Shown: one piece after another, positions 102 through 62,891 of the stretch | Position numbering within the stretch: position 1 is the first letter of the stretch | Layout: each line of letters begins with the position of its first letter | Notes under the pieces: model-generated | Database searches by the model: none | The model's input: the letters and a program-made list of their open reading frames with translations, nothing else | What the model was told of the DNA's origin: nothing | Origin: a gamma proteobacterium SCGC AAA168-P09 | GTDB lineage: Bacteria; Pseudomonadota; Gammaproteobacteria; Magnimaribacterales; D2472 | Assembly: GCA_000385055.1 (NCBI GenBank) | Contig: ARRL01000001.1 | Coordinates: 292,934 to 356,933, forward strand | Reading direction: 5' to 3' | DNA length: 64,000 nt | Position numbers and translations under genes: made by a program

Positions 102-1190
102 ATGGCTACAGAAAATTTAAAATCCTTAAGATCTAAAATTGATAAAATTGATAAAGATCTTTTAAAATTAATTCAGAAGAGAGCAGCTTTGGCTGTAAGT
201 ATTGGCAAAATTAAATCAAAGACAAGTCCTAATTCATCATTTTATAAGCCTGATAGAGAAGCAACCATATTAAGAAATATTCTTAAAGATAATGAAAACG
301 GAGCTCTTTCGAATGAGAAGATAAAAACAATATATAAAGAGCTTATTTCAGGGTGTCTCTCTTTGGAAGAGGCATTAAAAATATCCTATTTAGGTCCAGA
401 GGGAACACATTCAGAAGCAGCTGTTCATGGACACTTTGGTTCGCTTGTTTCAAGAATACCATCACCAACAATCGATGATGTTTTTCATCAAGTTTTAAAA
501 GGAGAGTCAGATATTGGAGTAGTACCAGTTGAAAATTCATCTGAAGGAGTTATTAATACAACCTTAAACTGTCTTGCTGACAATGAAAGCCTATCAATAA
601 TTGGTGAAATATATCTTGATATTAATCATCAATTAGCCTCTGGCAATAAGTTTGATATAAAGGAAGCTTTTGCTATTGCATCTCATCCTCAAGCTCTTGG
701 ACAATGCAATAAATGGATAGAAAAAAATATTGGGTCAATCAAAAGATTAGAGATGCCAAGTTCTGCGGTAGCTGCGAAGTATGCAAAAGAAAATAAAAAT
801 ATTCTGTGTATTGTTAATGCATTAGCTATTGAAAAATATAAATTGAAATTGCAAAAAAAGGATATCCAAGATTATTCAGATAACAAAACAAGATTCCTTG
901 TCATTGGACAAAATGAGCTCGGCTCAACAGGTAAAGATAAAACATCTTTTCTTATTCAAACAGCAAATCAACCCGGAGCACTTATAAATATCTTAAGACC
1001 TTTTGAAAAAAGAAAAATTAATTTAAGTAAAATTGAAACACGTCCCTCAAGAGGAAATATTAATTCTCACGATTTCTTTATAGATTGTGAAGGCCATAAA
1101 GATGATTCAAAATTAAAGCTTGCAATTAAAGAAGCTAAAAGTGCAGGCTCGCTTGTAAGAATACTTGGTTCTTATCCTCAGCATGTATGA
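102..1190 (+). CDS. pheA: chorismate mutase/prephenate dehydratase (P-protein)
   Basis: N-terminal CM domain (LRSKIDKID), YLGPEGTHS, VPVENSSEG, TRFLVIG, C-terminal ACT domain. Confidence 0.95.
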   Translation: MATENLKSLRSKIDKIDKDLLKLIQKRAALAVSIGKIKSKTSPNSSFYKPDREATILRNILKDNENGALSNEKIKTIYKELISGCLSLEEALKISYLGPEGTHSEAAVHGHFGSLVSRIPSPTIDDVFHQVLKGESDIGVVPVENSSEGVINTTLNCLADNESLSIIGEIYLDINHQLASGNKFDIKEAFAIASHPQALGQCNKWIEKNIGSIKRLEMPSSAVAAKYAKENKNILCIVNALAIEKYKLKLQKKDIQDYSDNKTRFLVIGQNELGSTGKDKTSFLIQTANQPGALINILRPFEKRKINLSKIETRPSRGNINSHDFFIDCEGHKDDSKLKLAIKEAKSAGSLVRILGSYPQHV

Positions 1191-2281
1191 ATAAGCTACT
1201 AGATAATATTAATAAAGGTATTGCTGAGCTTCATCCTTATGAACCTGGTAGATCAATAGATGAGGTTGTGGCCGAATACAAGCCCGATAAAGTAGTTAAA
1301 CTTGCTAGCAATGAAAATCCTCTTGGGCCATCCCCAAAAGCAGCTAAGATCCTGTCACAAGCAAATAATTTGCACTTATATCCTGATGGAGATTCTAAAA
1401 AATTAAAAGCACTTATTGCAAGACATGAGCTATTGACTGAAAAGAATATTATTGTTGGAAATGGATCTAATGAAGTTTTAGAGCTTGCTGCAAGAGCCTT
1501 TCTTAATAAAGATACTAGTGCAGTAATGTCAAAGCATGCTTTTGCTGTATACAAAATTGTTACTCAATCATGTGGCTCTAAAATTATTGAAGTACCTGCT
1601 AAAAACTGGAAACATGCGCTAGATGATTTTCCTGAATTTATAGATGAATCTACACGAATATGTTTTGTAGCTAATCCAAATAATCCTACAGGAACTTATA
1701 ATTCTCATGAAGAATTTGAATCGATGATGAGCAAAATTTCATCATCTGTTTTGGTTATACTTGATTTAGCATATTTTGAGTATGTTGATGCAGAGGATTA
1801 TGTAAATGCAAATGCATTAATGAGTAAATATTCAAATCTTCTTATCACTAAAACTTTTTCAAAAATTCAAGGGTTAGCAAGTCTTAGGATTGGATACGGT
1901 CTTGCACACCCAGACCTAATAGCAGTTTTAAATAAAATTAGACAACCTTTTAATTCTAACTCCCTTGCTCAACATGCAGCTTGCGAAGCTATTTTAGATG
2001 AAGATCATATAAAAAAGAGTGTAGAACTAAATTCATATCAAAGAGATTTTTTATACCAACAACTAACTGATATGGGTATGGAGTGCATACCTTCTCAAGG
2101 AAATTTCATATCTTTTAAAGGTAATTTTGATGCAAAAGATTTATTTACTAGCCTAATGAAGCAAGGGGTGATTGTAAGACCGATAGCTTTATATGATATG
2201 CCTGAATATATTAGAGTCACAGTTGGAACAAAGGATGAGAATGAATATTTCTTAGAAAAATTAAAGGAGGTCCTATCATGA
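1187..2281 (+). CDS. hisC: histidinol-phosphate aminotransferase
   Basis: KLASNENPLG, GNGSNE, NPNNPTG, TFSK motifs; position in operon. Confidence 0.93.
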   Translation: MNKLLDNINKGIAELHPYEPGRSIDEVVAEYKPDKVVKLASNENPLGPSPKAAKILSQANNLHLYPDGDSKKLKALIARHELLTEKNIIVGNGSNEVLELAARAFLNKDTSAVMSKHAFAVYKIVTQSCGSKIIEVPAKNWKHALDDFPEFIDESTRICFVANPNNPTGTYNSHEEFESMMSKISSSVLVILDLAYFEYVDAEDYVNANALMSKYSNLLITKTFSKIQGLASLRIGYGLAHPDLIAVLNKIRQPFNSNSLAQHAACEAILDEDHIKKSVELNSYQRDFLYQQLTDMGMECIPSQGNFISFKGNFDAKDLFTSLMKQGVIVRPIALYDMPEYIRVTVGTKDENEYFLEKLKEVLS

Positions 2282-3150
2282 CCAATCCTGCTCAAGAAAT
2301 ATTAATTATAGGATTAGGTTTAATAGGATCTTCTCTTGCAAAAGCCACTAAAAATAAAGGCTTGGTTGTTCATGGATATGATTTAGATCAAGCAACTTTG
2401 GTTAAGGCTACTGATAACAAAATTATAGATAAAACTTTCGAGTCTCTAGAAGAAATTAATAATAAGGAATTAATAGGCAAAATCGATCTAATTATTGTTG
2501 CTGTTTCTCCAAGGGTAACCCAATCAGTTATTTCATCTTTAAAAAGCCTCTGGAATACTGACATAACCATTACTGAAACGTCTAGTGTTAAAAATCATTT
2601 GAATTTTGATTCACCAAATAATTTAGTTTTTTCTCACCCAATTGCTGGATCTGACAAATCAGGTATATCCGCATTAGATGAGAATCTGTTTACCAATAAA
2701 AAGACTATCATTTGCAATCCTTATGATGCTAAAGAAGATCATATAAATAAGGTTATTAATTTTTGGCAACATGCATTATCTATGAGAGTTTCTGAAATGA
2801 CTGTCAAGGAGCATGATTTATTATTTGCAATGACAAGCCATTTACCCCATTTAATATCTTATGCGCTAATTGATTCTATTAGACTATCTTCAACAGAGGC
2901 GGGTGACAATGCAGGAGGAGGCTTAAAAGAATTCATTAGGTTGAGTGGGTCAAATCCGGAAATGTGGAAAGATATATTTGAGCTGAATGAAAAAAATATA
3001 ATCAAATCTTTAGCTAGCTTTCAACTTTCAATTAACAATTTACTTGAGTTAATCACAAAAATTAAAGAAATCCCATCAACTTTTTCCCATTCTGACATGC
3101 TGAAAAGTGAATTAGATGAGATAAAAAAATATAAAGAAGATACGTTTTGA
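2278..3150 (+). CDS. tyrA: prephenate/arogenate dehydrogenase
   Basis: GLGLIGSS Rossmann motif, SHPIAGS, HD..FA.TSHLPH. Confidence 0.88.
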   Translation: MTNPAQEILIIGLGLIGSSLAKATKNKGLVVHGYDLDQATLVKATDNKIIDKTFESLEEINNKELIGKIDLIIVAVSPRVTQSVISSLKSLWNTDITITETSSVKNHLNFDSPNNLVFSHPIAGSDKSGISALDENLFTNKKTIICNPYDAKEDHINKVINFWQHALSMRVSEMTVKEHDLLFAMTSHLPHLISYALIDSIRLSSTEAGDNAGGGLKEFIRLSGSNPEMWKDIFELNEKNIIKSLASFQLSINNLLELITKIKEIPSTFSHSDMLKSELDEIKKYKEDTF

Positions 3151-4457
3151 ATCTATTTGCTAAATCTAGCACATCAATCTCTGGCGAAGTTGTTTGCCCC
3201 GGTGATAAATCTATTTCGCAACGAGCACTTATTTTAGGCTCAATTCTAAATGAAGATATTTCAATTGAAGGGTTTTTAAATGGCGAGGACCCCATATCAA
3301 CAGCCAATGCATTAAATGCTATAGGCTCATCTATAACAGTCAATGGAACTTCAGTATCTATAAAAAAAAGGCACATTCCATTTAAAAAACCTACAACCGA
3401 AGTAGATTTAGGTAACTCGGGTACTGGGATGAGGCTAATGATGGGTTTAATTTCAAGTTTAGATATTGAAGCAACCTTGATTGGTGATGAGTCATTAACT
3501 AAAAGACCAATGCTGCGAATGGCAAATCCTTTAAATGATATGGGGGCCACTATAAGCTGCAGTGAAGGCAAACCTCCGGTCAAAATTTATCCAGGTAAAG
3601 TAATAGATAATTTTACATATGAGATGCCAATTGCTAGTGCTCAAGTTAAATCTGGGATTATTCTATCTGCTCTAGCTGCAAATAAGAACGTTACCGTTAT
3701 TGAAAAGCATCCAACAAGAAATCATACCGAAAGAATGATCAGTCACTTTCATGGAAATATAGAATCTATTCCTTATAAAGCCGGAAATAAAATAATATAT
3801 TCTCCTTCAAAATTAATACCCTCAAAGTCATATAGGGTTGTTGGAGATTTTTCATCTGCTGCATTTCTTATTGTTGCCGGTTTAATTGCAAAAGAGTCAA
3901 ATATTGTTATTAAAAATGTTGGTTTAAACCCTACACGATGCGGGTTAATAGATGTTCTCAAGTCAATGGGAGGGTCTATAGAAATCAAGAATGAAAAAGT
4001 TATATCCTATGAAGAGGTCGGTGACATACATGTTAGATCTTCTGCTTTAAAAGGAGTAAGCATAAGCGGAGATGTTATCCCTAATATAATCGATGAGATT
4101 CCAATTTTAAGTATTGCTGCAGCTTTTGCAGAAGGAGAAACGTCAATATCGGACGCAGAAGAATTGCGAGTGAAAGAATCTGATAGGCTTCAAGCTATTT
4201 CAGATGGACTTATCAAAATTAATGTAAGTCACCAATTGTATAATGATGGAATTAAAATCACTGGTTCATCTCAAGATATTGTAGATTCAGCTGAAATCGA
4301 TTCTCATGGAGATCATCGTATTGCTATGAGTTTTTTAATTGCTAGCTTAAGATCAACGAATGGAGTTTTTGTAAAAGATTGCAAAAATATTTTTACCTCT
4401 TTTCCTCACTTTATCGAGGTCATGAAAACTCTTGGTATAGATGTTGATGAAAGATAA
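3147..4457 (+). CDS. aroA: 3-phosphoshikimate 1-carboxyvinyltransferase (EPSP synthase)
   Basis: PGDKSISQR, DLGNSGTGMR, SAQVKS, RNHTE, ELRVKESDR, DHRIAM. Confidence 0.97.
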   Translation: MNLFAKSSTSISGEVVCPGDKSISQRALILGSILNEDISIEGFLNGEDPISTANALNAIGSSITVNGTSVSIKKRHIPFKKPTTEVDLGNSGTGMRLMMGLISSLDIEATLIGDESLTKRPMLRMANPLNDMGATISCSEGKPPVKIYPGKVIDNFTYEMPIASAQVKSGIILSALAANKNVTVIEKHPTRNHTERMISHFHGNIESIPYKAGNKIIYSPSKLIPSKSYRVVGDFSSAAFLIVAGLIAKESNIVIKNVGLNPTRCGLIDVLKSMGGSIEIKNEKVISYEEVGDIHVRSSALKGVSISGDVIPNIIDEIPILSIAAAFAEGETSISDAEELRVKESDRLQAISDGLIKINVSHQLYNDGIKITGSSQDIVDSAEIDSHGDHRIAMSFLIASLRSTNGVFVKDCKNIFTSFPHFIEVMKTLGIDVDER

Positions 4458-5106
4458 TATTATTACTATTGATGGGCCATCTGCATCAGGCAAAGGAAGC
4501 TTAGCAAGGAATATTGCTGCTCATCTTAACTTTGATATTTTAGATAGCGGTCTTTTATATAGAGTTTATGCATATCTTTTTGATTCTGGCCTAGAACATA
4601 CAAAAATAGTTGCACATATCAAGAAAAATATATTATTTAAGACTGATAATGAAGGCTTAACTATCCAAGAAGGTTCAGAGGATATTACTGGGAAATTGAG
4701 ATCAGAAAAAACTGCAAAAGCTGCATCAAAAATAAGCTCTTTAAAAGAAACAAGAAATAATTTACTTGAGTTGCAAAGAGGGTTTTATATATCCAAGGGT
4801 TTAGTAGCGGATGGCCGAGATATGGGAACAGTTGTTTTCCCTAATGCTAAATTAAAAATATTTTTAATTGCATCTCCTGAAGTAAGAGCAAAAAGAAGAT
4901 ATTTAGAGTTGCAGAATCGAGGCCAAGAAGTTAATATGCTCGCTCTGATTGAAGACATAAAGCAGAGAGATTTAAAAGATCAGACCAGAGTCTTATCTCC
5001 TTTAATCCCTGCAGAAGATTCAATAGTTATTGATTCTTCTGAAATGTCACTTGACGAAGTACTGAGTTTTACTAAAAAGCTCACAAAAAGGAAATTAAAT
5101 AAATGA
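4441..5106 (+). CDS. cmk: cytidylate kinase (start may be ATG 4447)
   Basis: [13 protein letters not shown]-loop, [19 protein letters not shown]. Confidence 0.96.
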
Positions 5107-6410
5107 CAGAATCATTTGCAGCTTTACTAGATGAAAGTTTAAGCACTTTAGATATGCAGCCTGGCTCAATAGTTTCAGGAGTTGTATTGGATGTAGATAG
5201 TGACTGGGTAACAGTTCACGTTGGTTTAAAATCAGAAGGAGTAGTCTCTCTTGATGAGTTCAGAAATAATGAAGGAGAAGTAAGCATCGCCGTGGGTGAT
5301 GAAGTTGAGGTTGCGCTTGAAGCCGTTGAAGACGGTTATGGCGAAACTAGAATCTCTCGAGAAAAAGCTAGAAAAATTACTACATGGAAAATGCTTGAAG
5401 ACGCTCTTGAAACAGGAGAATTTGTAACAGGTAAAATCCATAATAGAGTTAAGGGAGGTTTTGCGGTTGAAGTCGAGGTTGTAAAAGCATTCCTACCTGG
5501 TTCTCTTGTTGATGTGAGACCTGTTAAAGAGGCTCCGGATATAGAAAATACAGTTCAAGAGTTCAAAGTAATTAAATTAGACTATAAAAGAAATAATGTA
5601 GTTTTATCAAGAAAAGCTGTTTTAGAGAAAAATAACTCTGCTGTTAAAGTTGAGTTATTAAAAAATCTTGAAGAAGGCCAAATAGTTAAAGGTGTTGTTA
5701 AAAACATAACAGACTATGGAGCATTTGTTGATTTAGGCGGCTTAGACGGCCTACTTCATATAACTGACATCTCATGGTCAAGAGTAACAAATCCGGCAGA
5801 ATTTTTAAGTCTTGGTGATGAAATAGATGTAAAGATATTAAGTTTTGATAAAGAAAAACTAAGAGTATCTTTAGGTCTAAAACAAATTCAGAATGATCCT
5901 TGGGAAAATGTTGAAAGTAACTATGCTGTAGGCGGTGTTTATGAAGCATCTGTATCTAACATCACAGATTATGGATGTTTTGCACAACTCGAAGAGGGCA
6001 TAGAAGGCTTAATACATCTATCCGAGCTTGATTGGACTAGTAAAAATATTCATCCATCAAAAGTTGTAGAAATGGAGCAAAAGATCAAGGTTATGATTTT
6101 AGAGATCGACCATGATAAGAGAAGAATATCTCTTGGATTAAAGCAAACTAAAGCTAATCCATGGACAGAATTCGCTAATAAGTATGGTATTGGTGACAAG
6201 GTGGATGGACAAATAAAATCTATAACAGATTTTGGTATATTTGTTGGTCTGGAAGGCGATATCGACGGCTTAATTCATCTATCAGATATATCTGAAGAAG
6301 AAGATCCTAAAGAAGCACTAGAGGAATACAAAAAAGGCGATAAGTTAGAATGCATTGTATTTGCTGTTGATGCCGAGAGAGAAAGAATTTCTTTGAAGTT
6401 GAGTGAGTAG
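5103..6410 (+). CDS. rpsA: 30S ribosomal protein S1, five-domain short form (435 aa)
   Basis: MTESFAALL start, repeated S1 domains ([32 protein letters not shown]); follows cmk. Confidence 0.96.
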
Positions 6411-6719: not shown

Positions 6720-7388
6720 ATGTCAAAAACTATCATTGTTGCAGTTGATGAAACTCAACTAGAAGATTTTCAAAGCGTCGTCGACTCTCTTGATAGCAAT
6801 TTATGCATGATAAAAATAGGAAGCGTTAGCTTTAATGCTCTTGGTCATCAAGCAATCTCATATGCATCGAGCAAAGGATTTAAAATTTTTTTAGATCTTA
6901 AACTGCACGACATTCCTAACACTGTTAAGAAATCTATGGAGGGTTTGGTATCTTTGCCTATAGACATGATGACAATTCACACTTCCGGTGGTTTAGAAAT
7001 GATGAAAGCTGCAATGAAGGCTGTTGAAGGAAGTGATATCAAGGTATTTGGAGTAACTGCTTTAACAAGTTTGTCAGATGAAGATACATCTTTCATTTTT
7101 AAAAGAACCGCTGAAGAGCAAGTTAATGCAATGTTAGATCTGGCTGAACAAGCAGAAATTGATGGTGTTGTTTGTTCTCCACACGAGCTTTCATTAGTCT
7201 CTAAAAGAAAATCTTTACTATCAATTACACCAGGCATAAGACTTAAAGACTCTAATGATGATCAAAGTAGAGTCATGACACCAAAAGATGCTATTAACCT
7301 TGGAGCTAATTTTCTTGTCATAGGTAGGCCTATTACCGAAGCTGAAAATATTAAAGAAGCTCTGTTAGAAATTCATAATTCCCTTTAA
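6720..7388 (+). CDS. pyrF: orotidine-5'-phosphate decarboxylase
   Basis: FLDLKLHDIPNTV, TPGIR, DDQSRVMTP, VIGRPI. Confidence 0.97.
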   Translation: MSKTIIVAVDETQLEDFQSVVDSLDSNLCMIKIGSVSFNALGHQAISYASSKGFKIFLDLKLHDIPNTVKKSMEGLVSLPIDMMTIHTSGGLEMMKAAMKAVEGSDIKVFGVTALTSLSDEDTSFIFKRTAEEQVNAMLDLAEQAEIDGVVCSPHELSLVSKRKSLLSITPGIRLKDSNDDQSRVMTPKDAINLGANFLVIGRPITEAENIKEALLEIHNSL

Positions 7389-7398
7389 CTAACCGCGT

Positions 7399-8811
7399 AT
7401 GACATTATTTGAAGAAATTAAAAACCTTACTGTTTCTGATAAAGAGGATTGCTATGAATTATTCTTTGCCAGCAATCCAATGCAATATAAATCTCTTTTA
7501 AAAGGTTTTAACAAAGAAATATATAATTTATTTGACTCTCATTTTGATTCATTAAATTTATCAAAACAAATTCATCAATTCTTAAATGGAGCCATAGTTA
7601 ATTCTACTGAAAACCAATCAGCGATTCATCATGCATACAGAGATGCATATTCAGATAGTCCAAATAATTTATTATCTAAAGATATTTTAGATTCATGTAA
7701 TGAATCTATCAATATCTGTATAAAGCTTAAAAACGATCTTCTTGATAGAGGGATTAAGAATATTGTCACCATAGGAATAGGCGGCTCATTTGAGGGTCCT
7801 AAATTATTAATAGAAACCCTAACAGCAGAGCATGAAAGATCTTTTAATCATATCTTCTTAACAGGCCCCGATGTAATTGAGTTTTCTGAAATGATCGAAC
7901 CTCTCAATCAAGAAGAGACGTTCTTTATCGTTTCTTCTAAATCATTTAGCACAGATGAAACTCTTCAAAGCATTGAATTATCAAAAGATTGGAGTGGTAT
8001 GAAGTGCGACTTTGATAAATACTTTATCGCAGTAACTTCACAACCAAAAAAAGCTGAGGCATTTGGTTTTTCCAATAATAATATTATTCCATTCCCTAAT
8101 GAAATTGGGGGAAGGTATTCTATGTGGTCGCCTATCTCTTTACCTGCTATTCTTGAGTTAGGCGAGAGATTTATTGAATTTTTAAAAGGGGGATCTCTAG
8201 CAGATACTCAATTTCTTAATGATGCAAAGTATCAAGAGTTTTTAAAAACTCTATCCTATAGCGATATTTGGTATAACAATTTTCTTGGTAAAGGCACCAG
8301 AGTTTTATTAACCTACAGTTGGAAAATGAGGTTTTTTACAGATTATGCTCAACAACTTGAAATGGAATCGATTGGAAAGCAACCCAATAAAGATTCAATC
8401 TTTCAAAAGACAGGACAGATAGTTTTTGGTGGCTTTGGTTCTACCGCACAACACTCTTACTTTCAATTACTTCATCAAGGAACTGGATCGGTCTGCGCAG
8501 ATGTATTTACAATTGCCGAGAATAAAGAAAAGAATAAACTTTTATATGCACAATCCCAAGCCCAATCAAATTTACTAGCAAATGGAGCTGATGCAGAATT
8601 ACAAGAATTTGAAAAAGTTAATGGAAATGTACCTACAAATCTTTTTACTCTAGAATCTCTTAACCCATTTAACTTTGGTTATCTTATAGCTACCTGGGAG
8701 CACAGAACTTTTCTAACATCACAAATGTTACAAATAAATCCATTTGATCAATACGGAGTGAGTGCAGGCAAGATTTTCACTAAGAAATATCTTGAAGAGC
8801 ATGGCAGTTGA
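7399..8811 (+). CDS. pgi: glucose-6-phosphate isomerase
   Basis: IGIGGS, SSKSFST.ET, IGGRYSMWS, QQLEMESIGK, NPFDQYGV. Confidence 0.93.
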   Translation: MTLFEEIKNLTVSDKEDCYELFFASNPMQYKSLLKGFNKEIYNLFDSHFDSLNLSKQIHQFLNGAIVNSTENQSAIHHAYRDAYSDSPNNLLSKDILDSCNESINICIKLKNDLLDRGIKNIVTIGIGGSFEGPKLLIETLTAEHERSFNHIFLTGPDVIEFSEMIEPLNQEETFFIVSSKSFSTDETLQSIELSKDWSGMKCDFDKYFIAVTSQPKKAEAFGFSNNNIIPFPNEIGGRYSMWSPISLPAILELGERFIEFLKGGSLADTQFLNDAKYQEFLKTLSYSDIWYNNFLGKGTRVLLTYSWKMRFFTDYAQQLEMESIGKQPNKDSIFQKTGQIVFGGFGSTAQHSYFQLLHQGTGSVCADVFTIAENKEKNKLLYAQSQAQSNLLANGADAELQEFEKVNGNVPTNLFTLESLNPFNFGYLIATWEHRTFLTSQMLQINPFDQYGVSAGKIFTKKYLEEHGS

Positions 8812-10582
8812 CGTTTCAAAGGTACCCTCCACCCCAGGGGTGTATAAATTTTTCAGCAATCACGAAATAATTTATATAGGTAAAGCAAAAAATCTTAAAA
8901 AAAGAGTTTCTAGTTATTTTGGTAAATCTATTAAAGATAGAAAGACCTCTCAGATAAAATTTCTTACAGATAACATTGAAACTTTTACTACTAAAAATGA
9001 AGTTGAAGCTTTGCTCTTAGAGCAAATGCTAATAAAAGAAAATAAACCTAAATTTAATATTCTTTTAAGAGATGATAAAACTTATCCATATATTTATTTT
9101 TCACTAGACCATGATTTCCCTGGAATATATTCTAAAAGAACCAAACAGGCTGTGAACTCAAATTTTTTTGGTCCTTTCGTTAGCTCTGGCGCTGTAAAAA
9201 AATCTATAAAAGAAATACAGAAAATTTTTAGGTTAAGAAATTGCAATGATTCCACCTTTTCAAATAGATCTCGCCCATGTATAGAATTTCAAATGAAAAG
9301 GTGCTCAGCTCCATGCGTTCAGAAAATATCGAAAGTTGATTATTTTGAGGATGTAGCAAGTGCTAAATCTTATTTATCCTCATCAGACTCACAAACTATA
9401 AATCGATTAAATTCTGAAATAGAAAAAGCTTCACACAATTTAGAATTTGAAAAGGCCGCAGATATAAGAGATAGATTAAAAAGATTAGAGCTGCTTCGCG
9501 AAGAGCAATCTGTTGTTACCCTTGCTAGGGATGTGGATATATTTTCTGTTTATGCAGAAGATGATTATTTGGGAATATGTATCATCGTTGTTAGAAGAGG
9601 AAAGATTAGAGGAACTAAAACTCATCTTATTAAAAGGGCTTACTACGAATCAATAGATGATGTCTATCAGTCAGCCATTTTAAATTTTTATGATAATCAG
9701 ATAGACATACCTAATAAAATTTTATGCACCAGTTCTCTTGATACAAAAGAATTAATTAAAAAAGTAATTAAGAAAAAATTTAAAATCAAAGTTAATATTA
9801 CCCACTCACCATCAAGAGCCATAAGATCAATCTATAACCTATGTAAAATTAATGCAAAACAAGTAATACAGAATCATTTAAGCAAAGAAGATAGATATAA
9901 TTTTGCATTTAAAGAATTGCAAAGTGCAATGGGTCTCAAGATACCTATCAAGAGGATTGAAGCCTATGATGTTAGTCATATTTCAGGAGATCATGCGGTT
10001 GCGTCTTGTATTGTTTTTTCAGATTCTGGACCAAGTAATCAAGATTATCGATTATTTAATATTCCAAAAGAGTTATCTGGTAATGATGTCGGTTCTCTTA
10101 AGCATGTCATGGAAAGAAGGCTTAAATTTTATAAAGATAAAGAAACACGACCAGACATAATTCTTATTGATGGAGGCAAAACTCAATTGAAATTTGCTGC
10201 ATCTGTTATCAAAGCATCTAAACATAAAGATATAAAAGTAATTTCAATTGCAAAGGGGTCGGATAGGGTTCGTGCTACTGAAACGATCTTGTCTGAAGAG
10301 GGCATTATAGAATTTGATAAATATTCAAAAGCATTTCTTTTGCTTCAAGAAGCCAGAGATGAGTCCCACAGATTTGCAATAATGGCTCAAAGAAAGAAAA
10401 AAAGAGGAGGTATTAATAAATCTAAACTTGATGATATTGATGGAATAGGAGCAGTTCTAAAAAGGAGATTGCTCTTTAAATATAAAAATATTAAGAGCAT
10501 TAAGTTAGCTAACATTGATGATTTAATGACTGTTAAGGGTATTAATGCCAAAATAGCTTATTCAATTAAAGAAAAACTTTAA
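8801..10582 (+). CDS. uvrC: excinuclease ABC subunit C (likely ATG 8801; ORF track extends to 8762)
   Basis: PGVYKF..IIYIGKAKNLKKRVSSYF GIY-YIG, RIEAYDVSH, LIDGG, ARDESHRFA, C-terminal HhH. Confidence 0.96.
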   Translation: MAVDVSKVPSTPGVYKFFSNHEIIYIGKAKNLKKRVSSYFGKSIKDRKTSQIKFLTDNIETFTTKNEVEALLLEQMLIKENKPKFNILLRDDKTYPYIYFSLDHDFPGIYSKRTKQAVNSNFFGPFVSSGAVKKSIKEIQKIFRLRNCNDSTFSNRSRPCIEFQMKRCSAPCVQKISKVDYFEDVASAKSYLSSSDSQTINRLNSEIEKASHNLEFEKAADIRDRLKRLELLREEQSVVTLARDVDIFSVYAEDDYLGICIIVVRRGKIRGTKTHLIKRAYYESIDDVYQSAILNFYDNQIDIPNKILCTSSLDTKELIKKVIKKKFKIKVNITHSPSRAIRSIYNLCKINAKQVIQNHLSKEDRYNFAFKELQSAMGLKIPIKRIEAYDVSHISGDHAVASCIVFSDSGPSNQDYRLFNIPKELSGNDVGSLKHVMERRLKFYKDKETRPDIILIDGGKTQLKFAASVIKASKHKDIKVISIAKGSDRVRATETILSEEGIIEFDKYSKAFLLLQEARDESHRFAIMAQRKKKRGGINKSKLDDIDGIGAVLKRRLLFKYKNIKSIKLANIDDLMTVKGINAKIAYSIKEKL

Positions 10583-54754: not shown

Positions 54755-56218
54755 ATGGAAAAAGTAAAACAAAAAGCACTAACATTCGATGATGTCCTGC
54801 TTTTGCCAAGGTACAGTGACTTTATACCTAGCGAAGCATCAACTCAAACAAAACTCACAAAAAATATAACTATCAAGGTACCCTTGGTATCTGCTGCTAT
54901 GGATACCGTCACTGAATCAAGCATGGCAATAGCTCTAGCTGAAGTAGGTGGGATTGGTATTATTCATAAGAATAACTCTATTGAAGAACAAGTATCTCAA
55001 ATAAAAACTGTCAAAAAATATGAAAGTGGTGTTGTTAGAAACCCTATTACAATTGAATCAGACAAATCAATAGGCGAATTAATTCAACTAACTACCGAAC
55101 TAAATATCTCTGGGATGCCTGTTGTTGATGATAATAAATTAAAAGGAATAGTAACAAGTAGAGATTTTAGATATGCAGATAATTTGGGTGCTTTAGTCTC
55201 TTCAATCATGACCCCATTTGACGAGCTAATTACAGTAGTAGAGGGAACCTCACAAGACTCAGTAAAAAAATTAATGCATGAAAATCGAATCGAAAAAGTG
55301 TTAGTGATAGATAAATCAGGAATGCTTAGCGGACTAGTTACTATGAAAGATATTGAAAAGTCAGCAGAGCACCCAGATGCAACTAAAGATGATTCAGGTA
55401 GCTTAATGGTTGGTGCTGCACTTGGAACTGGATCGGATACTCTAGAACGAGCAATAGCATTAAGTGAGGCTGGAGTGGATGTATTTGTTATTGATAGCGC
55501 ACACGGTCATTCAAAAAACGTTGTTGATACAATTAAAATGATTAAAAAAGAGCTACCAGGCATCGATATAATTGGTGGTAATGTAGCAACACCTGAAGGA
55601 GCATTAGATTTAGTAAAGGCTGGGGTTGATGGGGTGAAGGTGGGAATGGGACCTGGTTCTATTTGTACAACACGTATTATTGCTGGGATTGGTGTACCAC
55701 AAATAACCGCAATACTTGATATTAAAGATGCTATCAAAAAACATGATGTGGGTATTATTGCTGATGGTGGAATAAGATTTTCAGGTGACATTGCAAAAGC
55801 TATAGCAGCAGGTGCTGACTCGGTCATGCTTGGAGGTTTATTTGCTGGAACAGAAGAAGCGCCAGGCAAAGTTGAACTATTTCAAGGAAGAAGTTTTAAA
55901 ACATATCGAGGTATGGGCTCGATTGGTGCCATGACCGAAAGACATGATGCAAATAGATACATGCAAGAAGATTTAGATTCTGAAAAATTAGTACCTGAGG
56001 GTATTGAAGGAAGAGTTCCCTATAAAGGCCTTGTAGCTAATGTAATAAATCAGTTAGTTGGTGGATTAAGGCAGTCGATGGGCTACATTGGTTGTAAAAC
56101 CATTAAAGCAGTTCATGAAGATAGTGAGTTTGTTGAAATTACAAACGCAGGTATGACCGAAAGCCATGTTCATGATGTCATGATTACAAAGGAAGCACCT
56201 AACTACCAAAGAAGTTAA
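54755..56218 (+). CDS. guaB: IMP dehydrogenase
   Basis: [20 protein letters not shown] pair, [28 protein letters not shown]. Confidence 0.98.
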
Positions 56219-56227
56219 TCATTAAAT

Positions 56228-57796
56228 ATGGCTGCCAATTTATCAACCACATCTAAACAGATAGATACCATTCTAGTTCTAGATTTTGGATCTCAATATA
56301 CACAGTTAATTGCAAGAAGGATAAGAGAGAGTAACGTCTACTCAGAAATACTGCCTTGGGATATTAATGAAGAAAAAATCAAATCAATTAACCCTAAAGG
56401 TATTATTTTGTCTGGAGGTCCAGACTCAGTTACGAATAGCTATACACCACGAGTTCCCCAAGTAATTTTTGATTTAAATATTCCCATTTTAGGTATTTGT
56501 TATGGAATGCAAACACTTGCAGAACAACTTGGAGGACAAGTTATTTCATCTGAGCAAAAGGAATTTGGATATTCAGAACTTAACATTACTGCAGATTGCA
56601 TATTATTTTCTGAATTGGGTAAAACGTTAAATGTATGGATGAGCCATGGAGATCAGGTGCAAGATCTGCCAGATAATTTTGATTTAGTAGCAGCAACATC
56701 TACCGCTCCAATTGCTGCAATGCAGCATACAAGCAAGCCTATCTATGCCTTGCAATTTCACCCTGAGGTAACTCATACAGAAGATGGTAAAACAGTCTTA
56801 GATAATTTTATTTTTAAAGTATGTGATGCAAAGACAGACTGGAAAATGGACGATTTAATAGGACAAAGAATTCAAGAAATTAAAAATCAAGTTCAAGATA
56901 ATAAAGTCCTGCTTGGTCTCTCGGGCGGAGTTGATTCTTCAGTCACTGCTGCACTTTTGCATCAAGCTATAGGCAAAAAGCTTGTATGCGTCTTTGTAGA
57001 TAATGGCTTATTAAGAAAAGGCGAAGCTGAAGAAGTTATGAATACTTTTAAAGAGAATATGAATTTAAATGTTATAAAGTCAGACAGTGAAGAGGTATTC
57101 TTAAGACATTTAAAAGATGTAAAAGATCCTGAACAAAAAAGAAAAATTATTGGGAGAACTTTTATTGATGTTTTTGATGCTGAGGCAACAAAATTAAAAG
57201 ACGTTAATTTTTTAGCACAAGGAACTATTTACCCTGACGTAATTGAATCTTCCGGTTCAGAATCTAAAGAAGCAAGGGTTATAAAATCTCATCATAATGT
57301 TGGCGGATTACCAGAAGAAATGAAGATGGAATTAGTTGAACCATTAAGAGACTTATTTAAAGATGAAGTCAGAAGAATGGGTGTTGAACTTGGCTTGTCA
57401 TCAGAAATGTTAAACAGGCATCCGTTTCCAGGTCCAGGTCTTGGAGTTAGAATTTTAGGAGATATTACCAAAGAGAAAACAAGAATTTTAAAAGAGGCTG
57501 ATCATATTTTCATAGAAGAGCTCTTAAAAGCAGATCTATATAAAACAGTTAGCCAGGCTTTCGCAGTTTATTTACCAATAAAATCAGTTGGTGTTGTTGG
57601 TGACGAGAGGAGATATGCTGAAGTTATAGCTCTAAGAGCAGTAGAGACAGTAGATTTTATGACTGCAAGATGGGCGCATCTTCCTTATGAGTTTTTAGAG
57701 CATGTATCTAATAGAATAGTAAATGAGATAGAAGAAGTTAGCAGGGTGGTCTATGACATCTCAAGTAAACCTCCAGCTACAATTGAGTGGGAATAA
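56228..57796 (+). CDS. guaA: GMP synthase (glutamine-hydrolysing)
   Basis: [58 protein letters not shown]. Confidence 0.98.
57779..57796 (+). repeat. att core copy 1 (natural guaA 3' end, ACAATTGAGTGGGAATAA)
   Basis: Last codons T-I-E-W-E-stop of guaA. Confidence 0.95.
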
Positions 57797-57857
57797 TGAG
57801 AAATTTTTAAAAAAAATATAAAATGTTTTTTTATTCAAATTTAAAGGAGGTAGAGAG

Positions 57858-58139
57858 ATGGAATTGAAACTAATATTTATGCTATCGAGTGATGTGGAAG
57901 TATCAGATACTGCATACGGACTAAACTTCAGAAAAGAAATCGAAGAGGTTTATGTTGGTGATACTTGGCAAGAGTGCTGCGATGAAGCATCTGATTATTG
58001 GGATTACGATACAACTATGTTTCCAACAGACGAAAATGGAGACATTGGAGATACTAGAAAAGACCTAATAAAAGTCCGTAAAAAAGTAGACTCAAATTGG
58101 GAAGAATACAGCGAAGAAGAAGAAGAAAAAAATTATTGA
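57858..58139 (+). CDS. hypothetical acidic protein, cassette 1 cargo
   Basis: 93-aa ORF with strong SD AAGGAGGT (57844-57851) 6 nt before ATG. Confidence 0.75.
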   Translation: MELKLIFMLSSDVEVSDTAYGLNFRKEIEEVYVGDTWQECCDEASDYWDYDTTMFPTDENGDIGDTRKDLIKVRKKVDSNWEEYSEEEEEKNY

Positions 58140-58272
58140 TTACTTCGACGAACTGTATGAAAAAAAAATGATGGCTGGTTAAATTGCAGTTTTGAAAAAG
58201 ACTTGTAAACTACTTGTAAACTCGATTTTGCCCCTCGTAAACCCTTGCTACATAAGGCTTTGTAAAAGGGTA

Positions 58273-58290
58273 ACTATTGAGTGGGAATAG
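58273..58290 (+). repeat. att core copy 2 (ACTATTGAGTGGGAATAG)
   Basis: 16/18 identical to the guaA 3' end; still reads TIEWE*. Confidence 0.95.
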
Positions 58291-58509
58291 TCGTTTTCCT
58301 CGCAAACCCCCATTCTTAAAGGGTTTAGCATTCTAAAAACAGTTACAAACTTGTTACAAACTCCTCTGTAGACTCCATTCCTTCGTAGCAGTTACAAACT
58401 TACTCGACTATTGCGATTCATTAAATGTTTTTAAGTATTACGTTTATTTATGTTGAACAAAAATACAAATTATAATAAGTTATATAATTAGATCCAATTC
58501 AAAAAACTT

Positions 58510-58998
58510 ATGAAAAAACTACTTCAAAAAACACAACTCACAATTCTATTATTTACAACTATTTTTTTTAGTACAAGTATATATTCTGAAGGTTGGTTGG
58601 ATAGTGATGGAAATTACCTTTCAATCATTAGAGCAAAAGAAGGTAACCGATTTGATGCTCAAGCATGGGCTCAGGTTAATCAGAGTATGAATTGTGAATT
58701 AAATGTCTTTCTTAACATGGATTCATTTAGCAATACTCTCCCAGCCATTATAGCAACAGTCAATGATGTTAGGGTTAGTTTTACATTATTTCTGAAGAGT
58801 GGAAATACAGCAGTTTATCAAGCGACATCTATTAAAGGCAGAAAATATTTCAAAGATCAGTTTTTTAAAAGCACCGCAGTAAACATAAAATTTTCCAATG
58901 GTGGTTTTGAAAGAGATAATTTAGTTTCAACGAAATATTTCACAGAAGCCTCAAATCATTTTGTTGAAGAATGCAGGAAAAAGGGCGAGATTCTATAA
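58510..58998 (+). CDS. hypothetical exported protein, cassette 2 cargo
   Basis: 162-aa ORF with N-terminal signal-peptide-like segment. Confidence 0.75.
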   Translation: MKKLLQKTQLTILLFTTIFFSTSIYSEGWLDSDGNYLSIIRAKEGNRFDAQAWAQVNQSMNCELNVFLNMDSFSNTLPAIIATVNDVRVSFTLFLKSGNTAVYQATSIKGRKYFKDQFFKSTAVNIKFSNGGFERDNLVSTKYFTEASNHFVEECRKKGEIL

Positions 58999-59256
58999 AT
59001 ATGCAAATATCAGTATTAAATATGCAATGTAGCTAATCGTGTAACTGACCTATTAATCTTTGCATACAACCCTTAGTAAATTTATAGTCCTCCTTAAGGT
59101 TACAATGTTTGTAACTCGGCATCTGCTAAAGTGTTGATATTACAAGGGTTTTGAGAGGTTATGACAGTAAGAAAAATAGGCAAGAGTTACAAAGTAGTTA
59201 CAAACTACAGAATGCCCCTTGTAAACCATTGTTCTTACAAGGTTTTTTATAACACT

Positions 59257-59274
59257 ACTGTTGAGTGGGAATAG
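59257..59274 (+). repeat. att core copy 3 (ACTGTTGAGTGGGAATAG)
   Basis: Reads TVEWE*; one change versus copy 2. Confidence 0.93.
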
Positions 59275-59696
59275 TTGTAAATAGCACGAAACCCTGTTCT
59301 ATAGGGGTTTAAAGCAATATAAAGTGTGACAAACTCTGTCATGGCAAAGAAAGAATGCGGGTTTCAGGGTACTAAAATCAAACATACGGCAAACTCTTGC
59401 TGCTATTGAAAGTCATAAGTTCATGACGTAATAATTAAACGAGATGATTAAAAATGAAAATTACTGCCAACAGAGAGGAATATTTTCTAAAGTGGATGCA
59501 GTGAGGACGGGATTAAATAATGTAATCAAAGACTACGAATTAACTACACTCGGAACGCAATAAAACAGTATTCGTGTTGGGAGAGGTGTTAGTCCTAATC
59601 ACCTTTTCAGTTGGGAGTAAAATTCAAGAACTCTTATATTTCAAAAATTCTTTAATTTATTATAGACTTGAGGTCTATTAATTAAAAAATGATGAC

Positions 59697-60302
59697 TTGA
59701 ATATGAATAAAATTTACATCTTCTTTGGATTGATTCTTCTTGCCTCTTGTGCCCCCCTCAATGAAGTCCCCTCTAGAAACCTCGTTGAAAGAAATGGAAT
59801 CAAATACGAAATTAACTCCCAAACACCTTTTACTGGTATTTCTGTTAGTTCATGGAACAATGGTCAATTAGGAAAAAAACAAACCTACAAAGACGGAAAA
59901 CTAGACGGACTTTCTGAGAGGTACCTCGAAAACGGTCAATTGTTTTGGAAAACAACCTACAAAAACGGAAAACAAGACGGACTTTTTGTGGAGTATTATA
60001 TGAACGGTCAATTAGCATCTAAAAATATCTTCAAAGAAGGAAAAGTAGACAAATTTTGGGAGGATTATTGGATAAATGGTCAATTAGAATCTAGAACAAC
60101 CTACAAAGACGGAAAAGAAGACGGACCTTTTGAGACCTACTACGAGAACGGTCAATTGAAATCTAAAGGAAACTACAAAGACGGAAAACAAGACGGACTT
60201 GTGGAGAGATACGACGAGAACGGTCAATTGAAATCTAAAGGAAACTACAAAGACGGAAAACAAGACGGACTTGTGGAGAGATACGACGAGAACGGTCTTT
60301 AG
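59697..60302 (+). CDS. MORN-variant repeat lipoprotein (YwqK-antitoxin-like family), cassette 3 cargo; likely ATG 59703
   Basis: Lipobox LASC; repeated ENGQL..K.TYKDGK.DG..E.Y units. Confidence 0.82.
   Translation: MNMNKIYIFFGLILLASCAPLNEVPSRNLVERNGIKYEINSQTPFTGISVSSWNNGQLGKKQTYKDGKLDGLSERYLENGQLFWKTTYKNGKQDGLFVEYYMNGQLASKNIFKEGKVDKFWEDYWINGQLESRTTYKDGKEDGPFETYYENGQLKSKGNYKDGKQDGLVERYDENGQLKSKGNYKDGKQDGLVERYDENGL
60142..60297 (+). repeat. exact 72-bp tandem repeat (about 2.2 copies) in the MORN-repeat gene
   Basis: ACGAGAACGGTC starts at 60142, 60214 and 60286 with identical intervening sequence. Confidence 0.95.
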
Positions 60303-60667
60303 AATTCTTCTAGAAACGGTTGATACGCAGATATGTCTTTCTGCGAGAAATAATTAGTCATCCCCTTGTTGAAGAGGAGGTGTGTTCATCAAATTAAACT
60401 TGTATGAACACTTTTATTCAATTTGTAAGTATTGTATTTAATGGGGTTCTAGAGACTCTATATTTGATATTTTATAGGGGCATTGATGAAGACAATTTTT
60501 CTATTATTGAGTATGAATAAGGTGGTTTTATAGAGACTATCTTTGTCACAAAATAGGTTAAAATGAGGAAGATGATAGTAAAAACACAAAACAGTCATGA
60601 CAAACTTATGACAAACTATTTTTTTCATCTCTGTATCCCTTTTTTTATAAGGGTTTAAAATATTGCA

Positions 60668-60685
60668 ACTATTGAGTGGGAATAG
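60668..60685 (+). repeat. att core copy 4 (ACTATTGAGTGGGAATAG)
   Basis: Identical to copy 2. Confidence 0.95.
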
Positions 60686-60915
60686 ATTGTCGCCCTACAA
60701 CCCCCATTCCTACAATATTCTATAGTTACACGATAGTTACTAAGTCCTTGTAACTAAAGCATTCCTTAATTCGAGTTACACGAAATCTCCACTATTGCAA
60801 TCTAATAGAAGGCAACGCCTATTTAGGTATGATTTTAAAGAAAGAATCCATATATTATGCTGGAATTTATATGGTACTGAGGGCGAAAAATAGGAATAAA
60901 ATAACTCTCTATAAT

Positions 60916-61323
60916 TTAAGCAAAGATTTGAGAATAAGCCATATAAGCAATAATTAACCACCCAGTCACAAAAATACCAAATCGTACCACTACTATATTA
61001 AATGTTAATTGCCATAGTGAATGGACAATTCTTAAAATTACATATACCCATGCCAATTGAATCATTAAAGCATCAAAATTATTTATAATGGCAATGCATA
61101 TCGTAAGTGCATAAAATGCAACCGGCTGCTCAAAAAGATGATTGTAATTATCTGAAGTTCTTTCCACCCAAGCAGGCATTAATCCTCTTAAGTCTTTTGT
61201 ATGGGCTGCATCCTTCTGCGGATTTTTAGTGTATTTAAATCTGCCATAAGCCATTATTAAAAAAATAGTAAAAGTCCAAAGTACTAAAACCAATACCGGT
61301 GTTAAAAGTGCTGTCTGATTCAT
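60916..61323 (-). CDS. MAPEG-family membrane protein, cassette 4 cargo
   Basis: R...NYNHLFEQPV.FY, LAW.YV.LRI.HS, three to four TM segments. Confidence 0.85.
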   Translation of the reverse strand: MNQTALLTPVLVLVLWTFTIFLIMAYGRFKYTKNPQKDAAHTKDLRGLMPAWVERTSDNYNHLFEQPVAFYALTICIAIINNFDALMIQLAWVYVILRIVHSLWQLTFNIVVVRFGIFVTGWLIIAYMAYSQIFA

Positions 61324-61559
61324 AATTTTTTCCTCTACCTTATTAACAATAACAGAGATGTAAATATTTGAAAAGGGTATGTTTGGAGTAGGGCATTAAG
61401 GTTACAATGTTTGTAACTTACAAGTCGCTAAGTTACTGATACAACAGAGGAATTGGTTTAATGGGTAGAACAAAAAAAGAAGGTAAGAGTTACACGAAAG
61501 TTACACGCTTTTATTTTCGTGCTTGTAGCCCTTTGTCTATACGGCTCTATAAATCAGCG

Positions 61560-61577
61560 ACTATTGAGTGGGAGTAA
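61560..61577 (+). repeat. att core copy 5 (ACTATTGAGTGGGAGTAA), right boundary of the array
   Basis: Reads TIEWE*; followed after 12 bp by the NCS2 permease stop codon, with no arm motifs beyond it. Confidence 0.93.
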
Positions 61578-61589: not shown

Positions 61590-62891
61590 TTAATCTAGCA
61601 CAATAAATTTTAATAAGAAAATTAAAAAAAGAAACCAGGCTCCAAAACTAATATCTGATTTTTTTCCTGCAGCAAATTTAAGCACAACGTAACTAATAAA
61701 CCCTATAGCTATTCCATTGGCTATAGAGAAGGTTAAAGGAATCATAATAATCATAATTAAAGCTGGCAATAGTTCGGTATTATCCGACCAATCAAGTTTC
61801 TCCATGCCGCCTAGCATTAAAATTGCAACATAAATAAGAGCCCCTGCTGTTGCATAACTTGGAACCATAGATGCAAGAGGTGAGAAGAAAATTGCTATTA
61901 AGAAAAATATACCTACTGTTATTGCAGTTAATCCCGTTCTTCCGCCAGCCTCTACACCTGCTGAACTCTCAACATAACTTGTAACAGGCGAACAGCCAAA
62001 AAATGATCCAGCAACACTGGCAGTGCTATCGGCCTTTAAAGCCCTATCAAGATTTTTTATTTTTCCCGATTCATCTATCAAGTTTGCTCGAGATGCAACA
62101 CCAAGTAGGGTGCCAGCAGTATCAAATAAATTAACAAAAAGAAAAGAAATAATAACGCTTATCATTGCAACGTCTAATGCTCCAACAATATCTAATTTCA
62201 TCAACGTTGGCATCAAATCTGGTGGAGAAGAAACGAAGCCATTAAAATTAATTAACCCAAGCAATAACCCTGAAATAGTAACAGTGAGAACTCCAATGAT
62301 TATCGCACCAGTTACTTTTCTTATAGCCAGTATTAAAATCAAAAGAAAACCAACAGCTGCAAGCAAGGTTTCAATATTTTTAAAATTACCCATACTTAAA
62401 AAAGTTGCTTCATTTTGAATGATAATCCCACCTGTTTTTAAGCCAATAAAACCCACAAATAAGCCAACACCTGCTCCCATAGCAATCCTAAGATTCATAG
62501 GAATACTATTAAGCATCCACTGTCTTAAGGGAGTAACGCTGATGATTACAAATAAAATACCAGCTAAAAAGACTGCTCCAAGAGCTACCTCCCAGGAATA
62601 ACCCATTTCTCCAACAACTGTATAAGTAAAGAAAGCATTTAACCCCATCCCTGGAGCTAAACCAACAGGCCAGTTTGCATAAAGACCCATTGCAAAACAT
62701 GCAATAGCAGCAGCAATGCATGTTCCAACAAAACTTGCTCCATAATCCATGCCACTTGATGCCATCATTTGTGGATTAACAAAGATAATGTAAGCCATTG
62801 TTATAAAAGTGGTGAAACCAGCTAAGAATTCTTGTTTAATGGAAGTGCGGTTTAATTTAAGCTGAAAGGTTTTTTCTAAAAATTTTTCCAT
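61590..62891 (-). CDS. NCS2/AzgA-family purine permease
   Basis: E..AG.TTF.TMAYIIFVNP, LAPGMGLNAFF, FVNLFDT.GT, TSYVES.AGV.AGGRTGL. Confidence 0.93.
   Translation of the reverse strand: MEKFLEKTFQLKLNRTSIKQEFLAGFTTFITMAYIIFVNPQMMASSGMDYGASFVGTCIAAAIACFAMGLYANWPVGLAPGMGLNAFFTYTVVGEMGYSWEVALGAVFLAGILFVIISVTPLRQWMLNSIPMNLRIAMGAGVGLFVGFIGLKTGGIIIQNEATFLSMGNFKNIETLLAAVGFLLILILAIRKVTGAIIIGVLTVTISGLLLGLINFNGFVSSPPDLMPTLMKLDIVGALDVAMISVIISFLFVNLFDTAGTLLGVASRANLIDESGKIKNLDRALKADSTASVAGSFFGCSPVTSYVESSAGVEAGGRTGLTAITVGIFFLIAIFFSPLASMVPSYATAGALIYVAILMLGGMEKLDWSDNTELLPALIMIIMIPLTFSIANGIAIGFISYVVLKFAAGKKSDISFGAWFLFLIFLLKFIVLD

Follow-up and report, generated by a model that had tools for sequence, protein, structure and literature searches.

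The window analysed here is a 64-kb, AT-rich stretch of DNA (33.5% guanine plus cytosine, GC) from a marine SAR86 bacterium, in which a 3.8-kb array of four tandem cassettes, carrying one gene apiece, lies 3' of the GMP synthase gene guaA (region 57793-61573). Most probably, all four cassettes are small integrative elements that entered at the 3' end of guaA and have lost their integrase gene, and the short motifs repeated near the cassette ends would then be the arm sites of each element's own integrase; we put the probability of this reading at about 0.8. The cassettes run from one copy of an 11-bp core to the next, their presence varies among genomes, and relatives that carry an integrase gene beside matching arms occupy the same core.

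Architecture of the guaA array

The guaA gene (56228-57796, plus strand; Pfam GATase and GMP_synt_C) ends in the codons ..TIEWE and a stop, which serve as the chromosomal attachment site. The 11-bp repeat ATTGAGTGGGA, corresponding to the last 11 bases of the guaA frame, is present in five plus-strand copies that bound the four cassettes. The first (57782-57792) lies inside guaA at the junction with cassette 1, and the others are found at 58276-58286, 59260-59270 (as the variant GTTGAGTGGGA), 60671-60681 and 61563-61573, the last being followed by GTAA and then by the native flank, which matches that of the empty sites L033 and L115. By direct reading, the element-type core is ACTATT-GAGTGGG-AATAGT, a 7-bp spacer between 6-bp inverted repeats, as is usual for the crossover site of a tyrosine recombinase. 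Insertion restores the target gene, with guaA retaining its ..TIEWE and stop codon. The core variant GTTGAGTGGGA was seen at window position 59260, at L114:12551 and, flipped, at position 12609 of L241; because the identical variant marks the cassette 2/3 junction of both the window and L114, these two cassettes were inherited together. This change affects the left core-type half-site, and recombination between cassettes 2 and 3 might be weakened by it.

Next to the cores, each cassette carries its own set of repeated motifs, all on the plus strand unless stated otherwise. Cassette 1 (57793-58275) has them at the right end only, as two copies of ACTTGTAAAC (58201 and 58212, spanning 58201-58221) that are 11 bp apart and 64 bp before the core; no left-arm copy is present, and its two-armed full relative is L287. 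Cassette 2 (58287-59259) has a left arm at 58341-58399, with AGTTACAAAC at 58341 and 58390, TGTTACAAAC at 58352 and a CATTCCTT box at 58376, and a right arm at 59185-59205, with AGTTACAAAG at 59185 and AGTTACAAAC at 59196, again 11 bp apart and 64 bp before the core; both ends follow the consensus [A/T]GTTACAAA[C/G]. Its right end also holds a distal palindrome, GGTTACAATGTTTGTAACT (59098-59116), which is an inverted pair of arm-like half-sites. In cassette 3 (59271-60670), the left arm (59326-59394) consists of GTGACAAAC at 59326 and degenerate GGCAAA copies at 59341 and 59386, and a palindrome GTCAT-N6-ATGAC follows at 59412, while the right end has a distal near-palindrome of inverted TTTGTCACAAA (60542-60552) and two copies of ATGACAAAC (60597 and 60608; 60597-60616), 11 bp apart and 63 bp before the core. 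The initial annotation had placed this cassette's variants at both ends, which is correct for the shared motif, while the GGCAAA variants occur at the left end only. Cassette 4 (60682-61562) has AGTTACACG at 60724 and 60774, AGTTACTAAG at 60735, an inverted TTGTAACT at 60748 and CATTCCTT at 60760 in its left arm (60724-60782), and AGTTACACG twice in its right arm (61488 and 61499; 61488-61507), 11 bp apart and 64 bp before the core. The distal palindrome of cassette 4 (61400-61418) is GGTTACAATGTTTGTAACT, identical in the related contig L361. Thus cassettes 2, 3 and 4 retain both arm sets and cores while the recombination genes were lost, and cassette 1 retains the right arm only. An integrase-family profile detected no tyrosine recombinase in the four cassettes or in any open reading frame (ORF) of at least 80 aa in the 64-kb window, and no conjugation genes were found among the ORFs scanned.

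The spacing of these sites is nearly constant. Tandem arm pairs in the window are always spaced by 11 bp, which is one helical turn, and the same spacing was found in 27 of 27 non-redundant tandem right-arm pairs from related loci. The proximal right-arm site starts 63-64 bp ahead of the core in all four window cassettes, and the first left-arm site starts 53-65 bp past the core start. Moreover, several motifs exceed their expected numbers in the window: AGTTACACG has 5 copies against 0.07 expected, all within the array; GTTACAAA has 11 against 3.2, with 7 inside the 3.8-kb array; and CTTGTAAAC has 3 against 0.54. For TGACAAAC (5 copies against 2.1), the count alone is not significant, and three of the five copies are at the ends of cassette 3. 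The variants GTTACAAAC, GTGACAAAC, GTTACACG and CTTGTAAAC differ by 1-3 bases and are all closely related to a single 9-mer. A palindrome located ~160 bp before the core also has the private variant in most cassette types, which brings the number of own-variant copies in one element to five to seven.

Pairing of the two ends was also examined among 38 non-redundant cassettes from related loci. The left and right ends of the same cassette share a word of at least 9 bases in 37% of cassettes, compared with 7% of mismatched pairings (Mann-Whitney p=2.5e-6), and ends that face each other across a core share mostly only 5-8 bases. In a stricter, motif-based count, which covers cassettes with a tandem right-arm pair and misses at least one matched case, the right-arm motif was present in the cassette's own left end in 12 of 27 cassettes and in 12% of the left ends of others (p=3.5e-5). 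End pairing is therefore far above chance, yet not universal.

All motif positions given in the initial annotation are present in the window, including the one exception it had pointed out, an inverted AGTTACACG on the minus strand at 59038-59046 in the cargo part of cassette 2; with 0.07 copies expected window-wide, it is not a chance occurrence. The minus strand there reads AGTTACACGAT-TAGCTAC, compared with AGTTACACGAT-AGTTAC in the first two left-arm sites of cassette 4, and the inverted copy is missing from the cassette-2-type unit of L038. It is probably a relic of a cassette-4-type left-arm pair, as judged from this resemblance.

Comparison among genomes supported the proposal that the unit runs core to core. 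Empty sites, in which ATTGAGTGGGA-GTAG leads straight into the permease flank, are found in L033 (GuaA 99% identical) and L115 (GuaA identical). A cassette-2-type unit occurs alone in L038. Among further genomes in which GuaA is identical or 99% identical, L113 has an identical cassette 1 alone, and L114 has cassettes 2 and 3 without 1 and 4; its cassette 2 is 98.5% identical, and its cassette 3 has window-like ends around 4.7 kb of cargo, compared with 1.4 kb here. In L371 (guaA 3' end 97% identical), a cassette-2-type unit is followed by cassette 4, which takes the first, second or fourth array position, with differing neighbours, among L371-L378. In other SAR86 species, the arrays are different again and include further variants.

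The cargo genes of the four cassettes are diverse. Cassette 1 encodes a 93-aa protein (57858-58139) and cassette 2 a 162-aa protein (58510-58998), neither with a family match; cassette 3 encodes a MORN_2 repeat protein (59697-60302), and cassette 4 encodes, on the minus strand (60916-61323), a 135-aa membrane protein of the MAPEG family. An NCBIfam search of the cargo proteins assigned no family for cassettes 1, 2 and 4, and for the MORN protein of cassette 3 gave only a sub-threshold match to an adhesin family. The array is flanked upstream by guaB (54755-56218), which precedes guaA, and past the last core by a permease gene of the xanthine/uracil family (61590-62891, minus strand), which is the native downstream flank.

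Several other features were observed around the cores and arms. In many cassette types (window 58304-58326 and 59289-59310, and many related junctions), although not in cassette 4, one or both of the stretches that separate the core from the arm sites contain an inverted repeat AAACCC...GGGTTT. A role of the hairpin after each core as a replacement guaA terminator was considered and is unsupported, since a terminator scan flagged none and no T run is present; prophage L118, from another taxon, has a terminator-like hairpin at the corresponding post-core position. Left ends close with ACTATTG or GCTATTG, a copy of the left core half (window 58407-58414, 59402-59409 and 60791-60798), which in many cassette types is followed by TCATAAGT. 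This block is conserved across variants, and it may be a promoter or operator, or else serve as a secondary recombination site, where a crossover would remove the left arm. In addition, a promoter-like site, TTGAAA-18-AATAAT (59406-59435, plus strand; 10/12 matches), reads into cassette 3 and overlaps the block ACTATTGAAAGTCATAAGTTCATG, which is conserved across cassette types; it is a putative promoter, and promoter-like sites in the region are no more numerous overall than expected by chance.

The reading frame of guaA stays open ahead of most cassette cores, for a median of 25.5 codons, whereas the two remaining frames reach 8 and 6 (n = 52 non-redundant ends, including the window stretches 59161-59274 and 61461-61577 and related loci; p=9e-4 and 1e-6). 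The open frame is usually an ATG-started ORF of 26-42 aa that crosses the tandem arm sites, stops at the core stop codon and ends in ..TIEWE or ..TVEWE. In L253 and L262, the cargo gene itself terminates at the core stop codon.

Integrase-bearing relatives and the spread of cassettes

Relatives that carry an integrase provide the link between the arm motifs and recombination. A metagenome scan for the core together with the usual hairpin returned 120 contigs, several of which have a tyrosine integrase of ~420 aa directly after the left-arm sites, and a protein search using these integrases returned 469 relatives, whose contigs were looked up for arms. About ten integrase lineages were found on the one core, each adjoining its own arm variant, and the related loci hold at least 15 arm variants on that core, which bears out the earlier suggestion that several lineages with different arms use one core. 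The adjoining arm motifs include ACTACACAC (L264), GTTTGTCG (L336), TGTTGTAAAG (L265), GTTTCACAC (L291), GTTACTAAA (L362), GTTACCAAC (L366), TCACGGA (L367) and GTTACAAAC (L369). In L241, a 12.5-kb element at a guaA end has GTTACCTAC at both ends, and its integrase starts ~160 bp past the core. These sites flank the core on both sides, are distinct from the core-type sites and, in integrase-bearing elements, have one variant common to both arms; from this arrangement, they are most readily interpreted as arm-type binding sites of a lambda-like tyrosine integrase.

The integrases themselves have an extra N-terminal module before the two usual tyrosine-recombinase domains, for which four beta strands and one helix are predicted at high confidence. 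In a fold search, the remainder of the protein matches XerH, lambda Int 75-356, Tn1549 Int and Cre. The catalytic domain belongs to Pfam Phage_integrase and has a profile match to XerA (9e-9), and sequence similarity to solved structures is confined to this domain. N-terminal domains found beside different variants are ~40% identical, and N-terminal identity correlates with arm-motif similarity (Spearman -0.58, permutation p=0.003) in a small set of eleven integrase/motif pairs, with motif registers set by hand and the N-terminal domain not separable from whole-protein history. Within that limit, the co-variation of arm motif and integrase N-terminal part that the initial annotation had anticipated was observed.

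For the cassette 4 variant, one lineage appears to be a full-length helper, as suggested by the layout of two contigs. In L360, a guaA end near-identical to that of the window species is followed by the core, the cassette 4 left arm (AGTTACACG) and the 435-aa integrase P0033, after which comes a 154-aa ORF; in L361, the right end of cassette 4 is followed by the core, the same left arm (AGTTACACG) and the 428-aa integrase P0026. L361 represents either the joined site of a circular form or two elements of the same type in tandem. Over its left ~115 bp and right ~205 bp, cassette 4 has 90-98% identity with L360, L361 and L270, the last being a cassette-4-type unit whose integrase is shortened to 220 aa. 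A decay series is visible, from full (L360, L361) through truncated (L270 with 220 aa, L265 with 143 aa, and L291) to no integrase in the window. L343 had been considered as a junction of right end, core and left end from an integrase-less cassette 4; it was rejected, as it holds a truncated left-arm remnant followed by host DNA. For cassette 2, L288 has the same left-arm layout (AGTTACAAAC), followed by an integrase N-terminus at the contig end.

Truncated integrases that consist of the N-terminal part only (72-220 aa) are frequent among the relatives, with one cluster, P0127, containing 109 sequences; the truncated genes include L270:1298-1960, L265:319-750 and L291 ~2349-2762 (proteins P0121-P0129). 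They may be relics surviving beside the left arm, or arm-binding proteins with a role of their own. In several elements, a second small tyrosine recombinase of 198-199 aa is encoded on the opposite strand shortly after the large integrase (minus strand; L264:1885-2484, L362:3289-3885, L363:2931-3527 and L368:2047-2643). As well, L366:1967-2446 encodes a rolling-circle Rep (Pfam REP_ORF2-G2P), and L336 has, by eye only, ORFs (775-2769, 3052-3615 and 7200-7775) resembling a primase (664 aa), a small serine recombinase and a Rep next to its right arm-core-left arm-integrase junction. These replication genes suggest an extrachromosomal replicating phase. Exact terminal overlaps sought in L241, L336 and other contigs were not found, and hence circular forms were not seen there. 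IMG/VR was scanned with the core, alone or together with the hairpin, and with the arm pair of cassette 2; these scans returned no SAR86-type element, only guaA prophages of other phyla and unrelated matches. The confirmed prophages at guaA in unrelated bacteria of other phyla have tandem repeats ~60 bp past the core, at the same position.

Cassettes of the same type in different genomes have only their ends in common, with a left end of ~145-165 bp and a right end of 175-215 bp, and their cargo differs. For example, the cassette-2-type units of L038, L259, L301, L320 and L341 match the window at their ends alone, and L321, from a 40% GC host, shares the ends of cassette 3. The cassette type in L340 holds a complete type I restriction-modification system (269-5144), and the same type holds unrelated genes in another contig. 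Defence-type cargo of related cassettes also includes a C5 cytosine methylase and a Schlafen/AlbA_2 protein, with the minus-strand ORFs 9411-10436 and 285-1667 of L241 among the loci concerned.

The ends of cassette 2 are 87-89% identical where host guaA ends are 68-78% identical, and in general the non-coding cassette ends are better conserved than the guaA 3' end. Cassette 4 as a whole is 96-97% identical to the window copy over ~900 bp in eight genome assemblies, in which the last 600 guaA bases are 78-82% identical; this holds for L372-L378, and its MAPEG protein is listed in 239 blocks of the sequence collection. Judging from these identities, the integrase-less cassette 4 has spread across species. 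The simplest reading of this spread would be site-specific insertion by an integrase acting in trans, for which the P0033/P0026 type is the obvious candidate.

Proposed mechanism and alternative readings

In the mechanism that we propose, each element would derive from a circular form with an attachment site, attP, in the order of a distal inverted arm pair, a ~75 bp spacer, two tandem arms 11 bp apart, a ~50 bp spacer, the core ACTATT-GAGTGGG-AATAGT, another ~50 bp spacer, two tandem arms, one or two further arm sites, and the integrase promoter and gene. Recombination at the core would split attP, with one arm set passing to the left end of the cassette and the other to its right end. Both arm sets would have evolved to bind the N-terminal domain of the element's own integrase. 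Because attP is split in this way and the arms are fitted to their own integrase, the same private variant would appear at both ends of a cassette and switch at each core. The motifs may thus bind the integrase N-terminal domain, and integrase-less cassettes with two arms may be integrated and excised in trans by the cognate helper of an autonomous element in the same cell, while variant differences would limit cross-reaction between lineages. The selective excision of each cassette by its matching helper, as proposed in the initial annotation, is plausible. Its description of the paired variants as barcodes was overstated, since matched ends are expected from ordinary lambda-type integration; each cassette descends from one attP, and no special barcode design is needed.

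Several observations weigh against integrase-less elements with arms private to their own integrase. When the N-terminal module was searched by fold on its own, no match was significant, and the one relevant hit, at E=0.85, was 3rmp, an arm-binding domain from a P4-like integrase. The relatives examined included no integrase for the variants of cassettes 1 or 3, and the database relatives of the L288 N-terminus are all short fragments, which leaves the cassette 2 variant with N-terminal fragments only. The N-terminal domains of L288 and P0043 are only 55% identical and adjoin the same GTTACAAAC motif, and the distal palindrome of cassette 4 has a cassette-2-like sequence, not that of the AGTTACACG variant. 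Moreover, a private variant at both ends, the central claim of the initial annotation, holds for cassettes 2, 3 and 4 and fails for cassette 1 and for about half of the related cassettes, which are one-ended like cassette 1, lacking matching left arms, or chimeric. Chimeric cassettes, with ends of two types, were found in L317, L275, L323 and, once, in L375; deletions fusing neighbouring cassettes would produce them.

Some of these observations would also fit a more relaxed specificity, in which the variants are drift in one degenerate GTTACAAAC-like consensus, any integrase of the family acts on all of them, and matched ends reflect only descent from one attP. Only 1-3 bases separate the variants, the shared GTTACAAAC motif of L288 and P0043 at 55% N-terminal identity is in line with such tolerance, and so is the cassette-2-like palindrome of cassette 4. 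However, mixing of variants would then be expected within elements, whereas the 5-7 copies per element are near-identical, including the distal palindrome; in addition, N-terminal domains beside different variants are only ~40% identical, and their similarity correlates with that of the motifs. This alternative is, in our view, unlikely.

Another possibility is that the cassettes are immobile remains whose motifs persist because decay was recent, with strain variation arising from homologous recombination of whole arrays. The many one-ended or chimeric cassettes, the common truncated integrases, and the block inheritance, in both the window and L114, of the cassette 2/3 junction and its variant core would all be expected of dead relics. 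Such recombination accounts poorly for cassette 4, which remains 96-97% identical where guaA ends are ~78% identical, lies at other array positions beside other neighbours, and has its cargo protein in 239 collection blocks, and for non-coding ends that are conserved better than the guaA 3' end. We therefore consider complete immobility rather improbable, somewhat more so than relaxed specificity.

It is very improbable that the repeats serve a replication origin as iterons, or a regulator of the integrase promoter as operators. The left-arm sites do lie just upstream of the integrase start, and some autonomous relatives encode replication proteins (the Rep of L366, and the primase-like and Rep-like ORFs noted by eye in L336). 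Nevertheless, the sites flank the core at fixed distances and occupy both element ends, as the arms of left and right attachment sites (attL and attR) would, guaA prophages of other phyla carry tandem repeats at the same +60 position, and replication genes vary among elements while the integrase is the constant partner. Finally, local duplication and divergence of one cassette, which the direct-repeat cores and the end architecture common to all four cassettes might suggest, has a negligible chance of being right, given that the cargos are unrelated, that cassettes occur singly or in other combinations elsewhere, and that the ends of each match different lineages in other genomes with only the ends in common, as the initial annotation had argued in favour of independent insertions.

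A wider and more tentative proposal can be made for SAR86 and neighbouring marine bacteria, which we regard as possible rather than probable. At least 15 non-cross-reacting integrase/arm pairs might operate on one core, forming an integron-like store without a resident integrase, in which the ~160-210 bp ends of single-gene cassettes would be under selection and excision and re-insertion would depend on the matching helper only. The common truncated integrases, reduced to the arm-binding part, might persist as guards or regulators of their own cassette.

Relation to known integrative systems

The array documents in detail how one flexible gene region was built up in an uncultured and very abundant ocean bacterium, with small integrase-less cassettes that keep complete attachment ends, are stacked at one gene end and are exchanged between species. 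The paired data, with about ten lineages and at least 15 variants on one core, can be used for testing the reading of arm sites by the N-terminal domain, and, if the lineages are mutually exclusive, they would offer a ready-made set of recombinases addressing different cargo at a common landing site. A literature search pairing SAR86 with guaA gave nothing relevant. Integrative elements of several phyla are known to insert at the guaA 3' end, among them ATE-1, a Brucella suis island and GIsul2, and both tandem accretion and cis-mobilizable elements (CIMEs), decayed elements that keep attL and attR, are established concepts (PMC5704250). The SAR86 cassettes resemble CIMEs in that attL and attR are kept and integration genes lost, in having been stacked, through one site-specific integration after another, at a conserved gene's 3' end, and in that integrases with a common target are often only distantly related. 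Unlike CIMEs, the SAR86 units are very small (0.5-1.4 kb, one gene) and reside in a streamlined marine host, at least 15 arm variants occur on one core, and at least one integrase-less unit has spread across species.

Experimentally, the GIsul2 integrase excises and integrates its own island as well as the integrase-less CR2-sul2 unit bounded by att cores, a case that shares with the present one the guaA 3' end as target and, as would apply here, the movement of an integrase-less unit in trans (PMC9376610). GIsul2 probably belongs to another integrase lineage, with another host range, and neither arm-site variants nor arrays of many lineages were described in that work (PMC9376610). The SAR86 elements are also similar to the heterobivalent lambda Int system with its P and P' arm-type sites, including inverted core sites around a 7-bp spacer, tandem arms separated by one helical turn on either side, an integrase that has an additional N-terminal domain, and an integrase gene beside the P' arm; the difference lies in the SAR86 N-terminal domain, with four predicted strands and without a significant structural match.

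Repeated integration that leaves remnants has been reported from the islands of Prochlorococcus (bioRxiv 10.1101/2020.12.28.424599). Like the tycheposons of that marine oligotroph, the SAR86 elements and their relatives show same-site integrations that push older elements inward, fragmented integrases, partial target repeats, and adaptive or defensive cargo. The target here, however, is the protein gene guaA and not a transfer RNA (tRNA) or transfer-messenger RNA (tmRNA) gene, and arm sites, guaA and SAR86 do not feature in the preprint (bioRxiv 10.1101/2020.12.28.424599). Integrons likewise have mostly single-gene cassettes without a recombinase, one site, and a tyrosine recombinase acting in trans, as would be the case here. 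In contrast to integrons, the window has no attC, attI or resident integrase, the boundaries are guaA-derived attL and attR of lambda type with arm sites, and each SAR86 cassette would need its own cognate integrase lineage. Compared with these systems, what is new is the SAR86 setting, the small size of the units, the presence of at least 15 arm variants on one core, the spread of an integrase-less unit across species, and the link between arm variant and integrase lineage.

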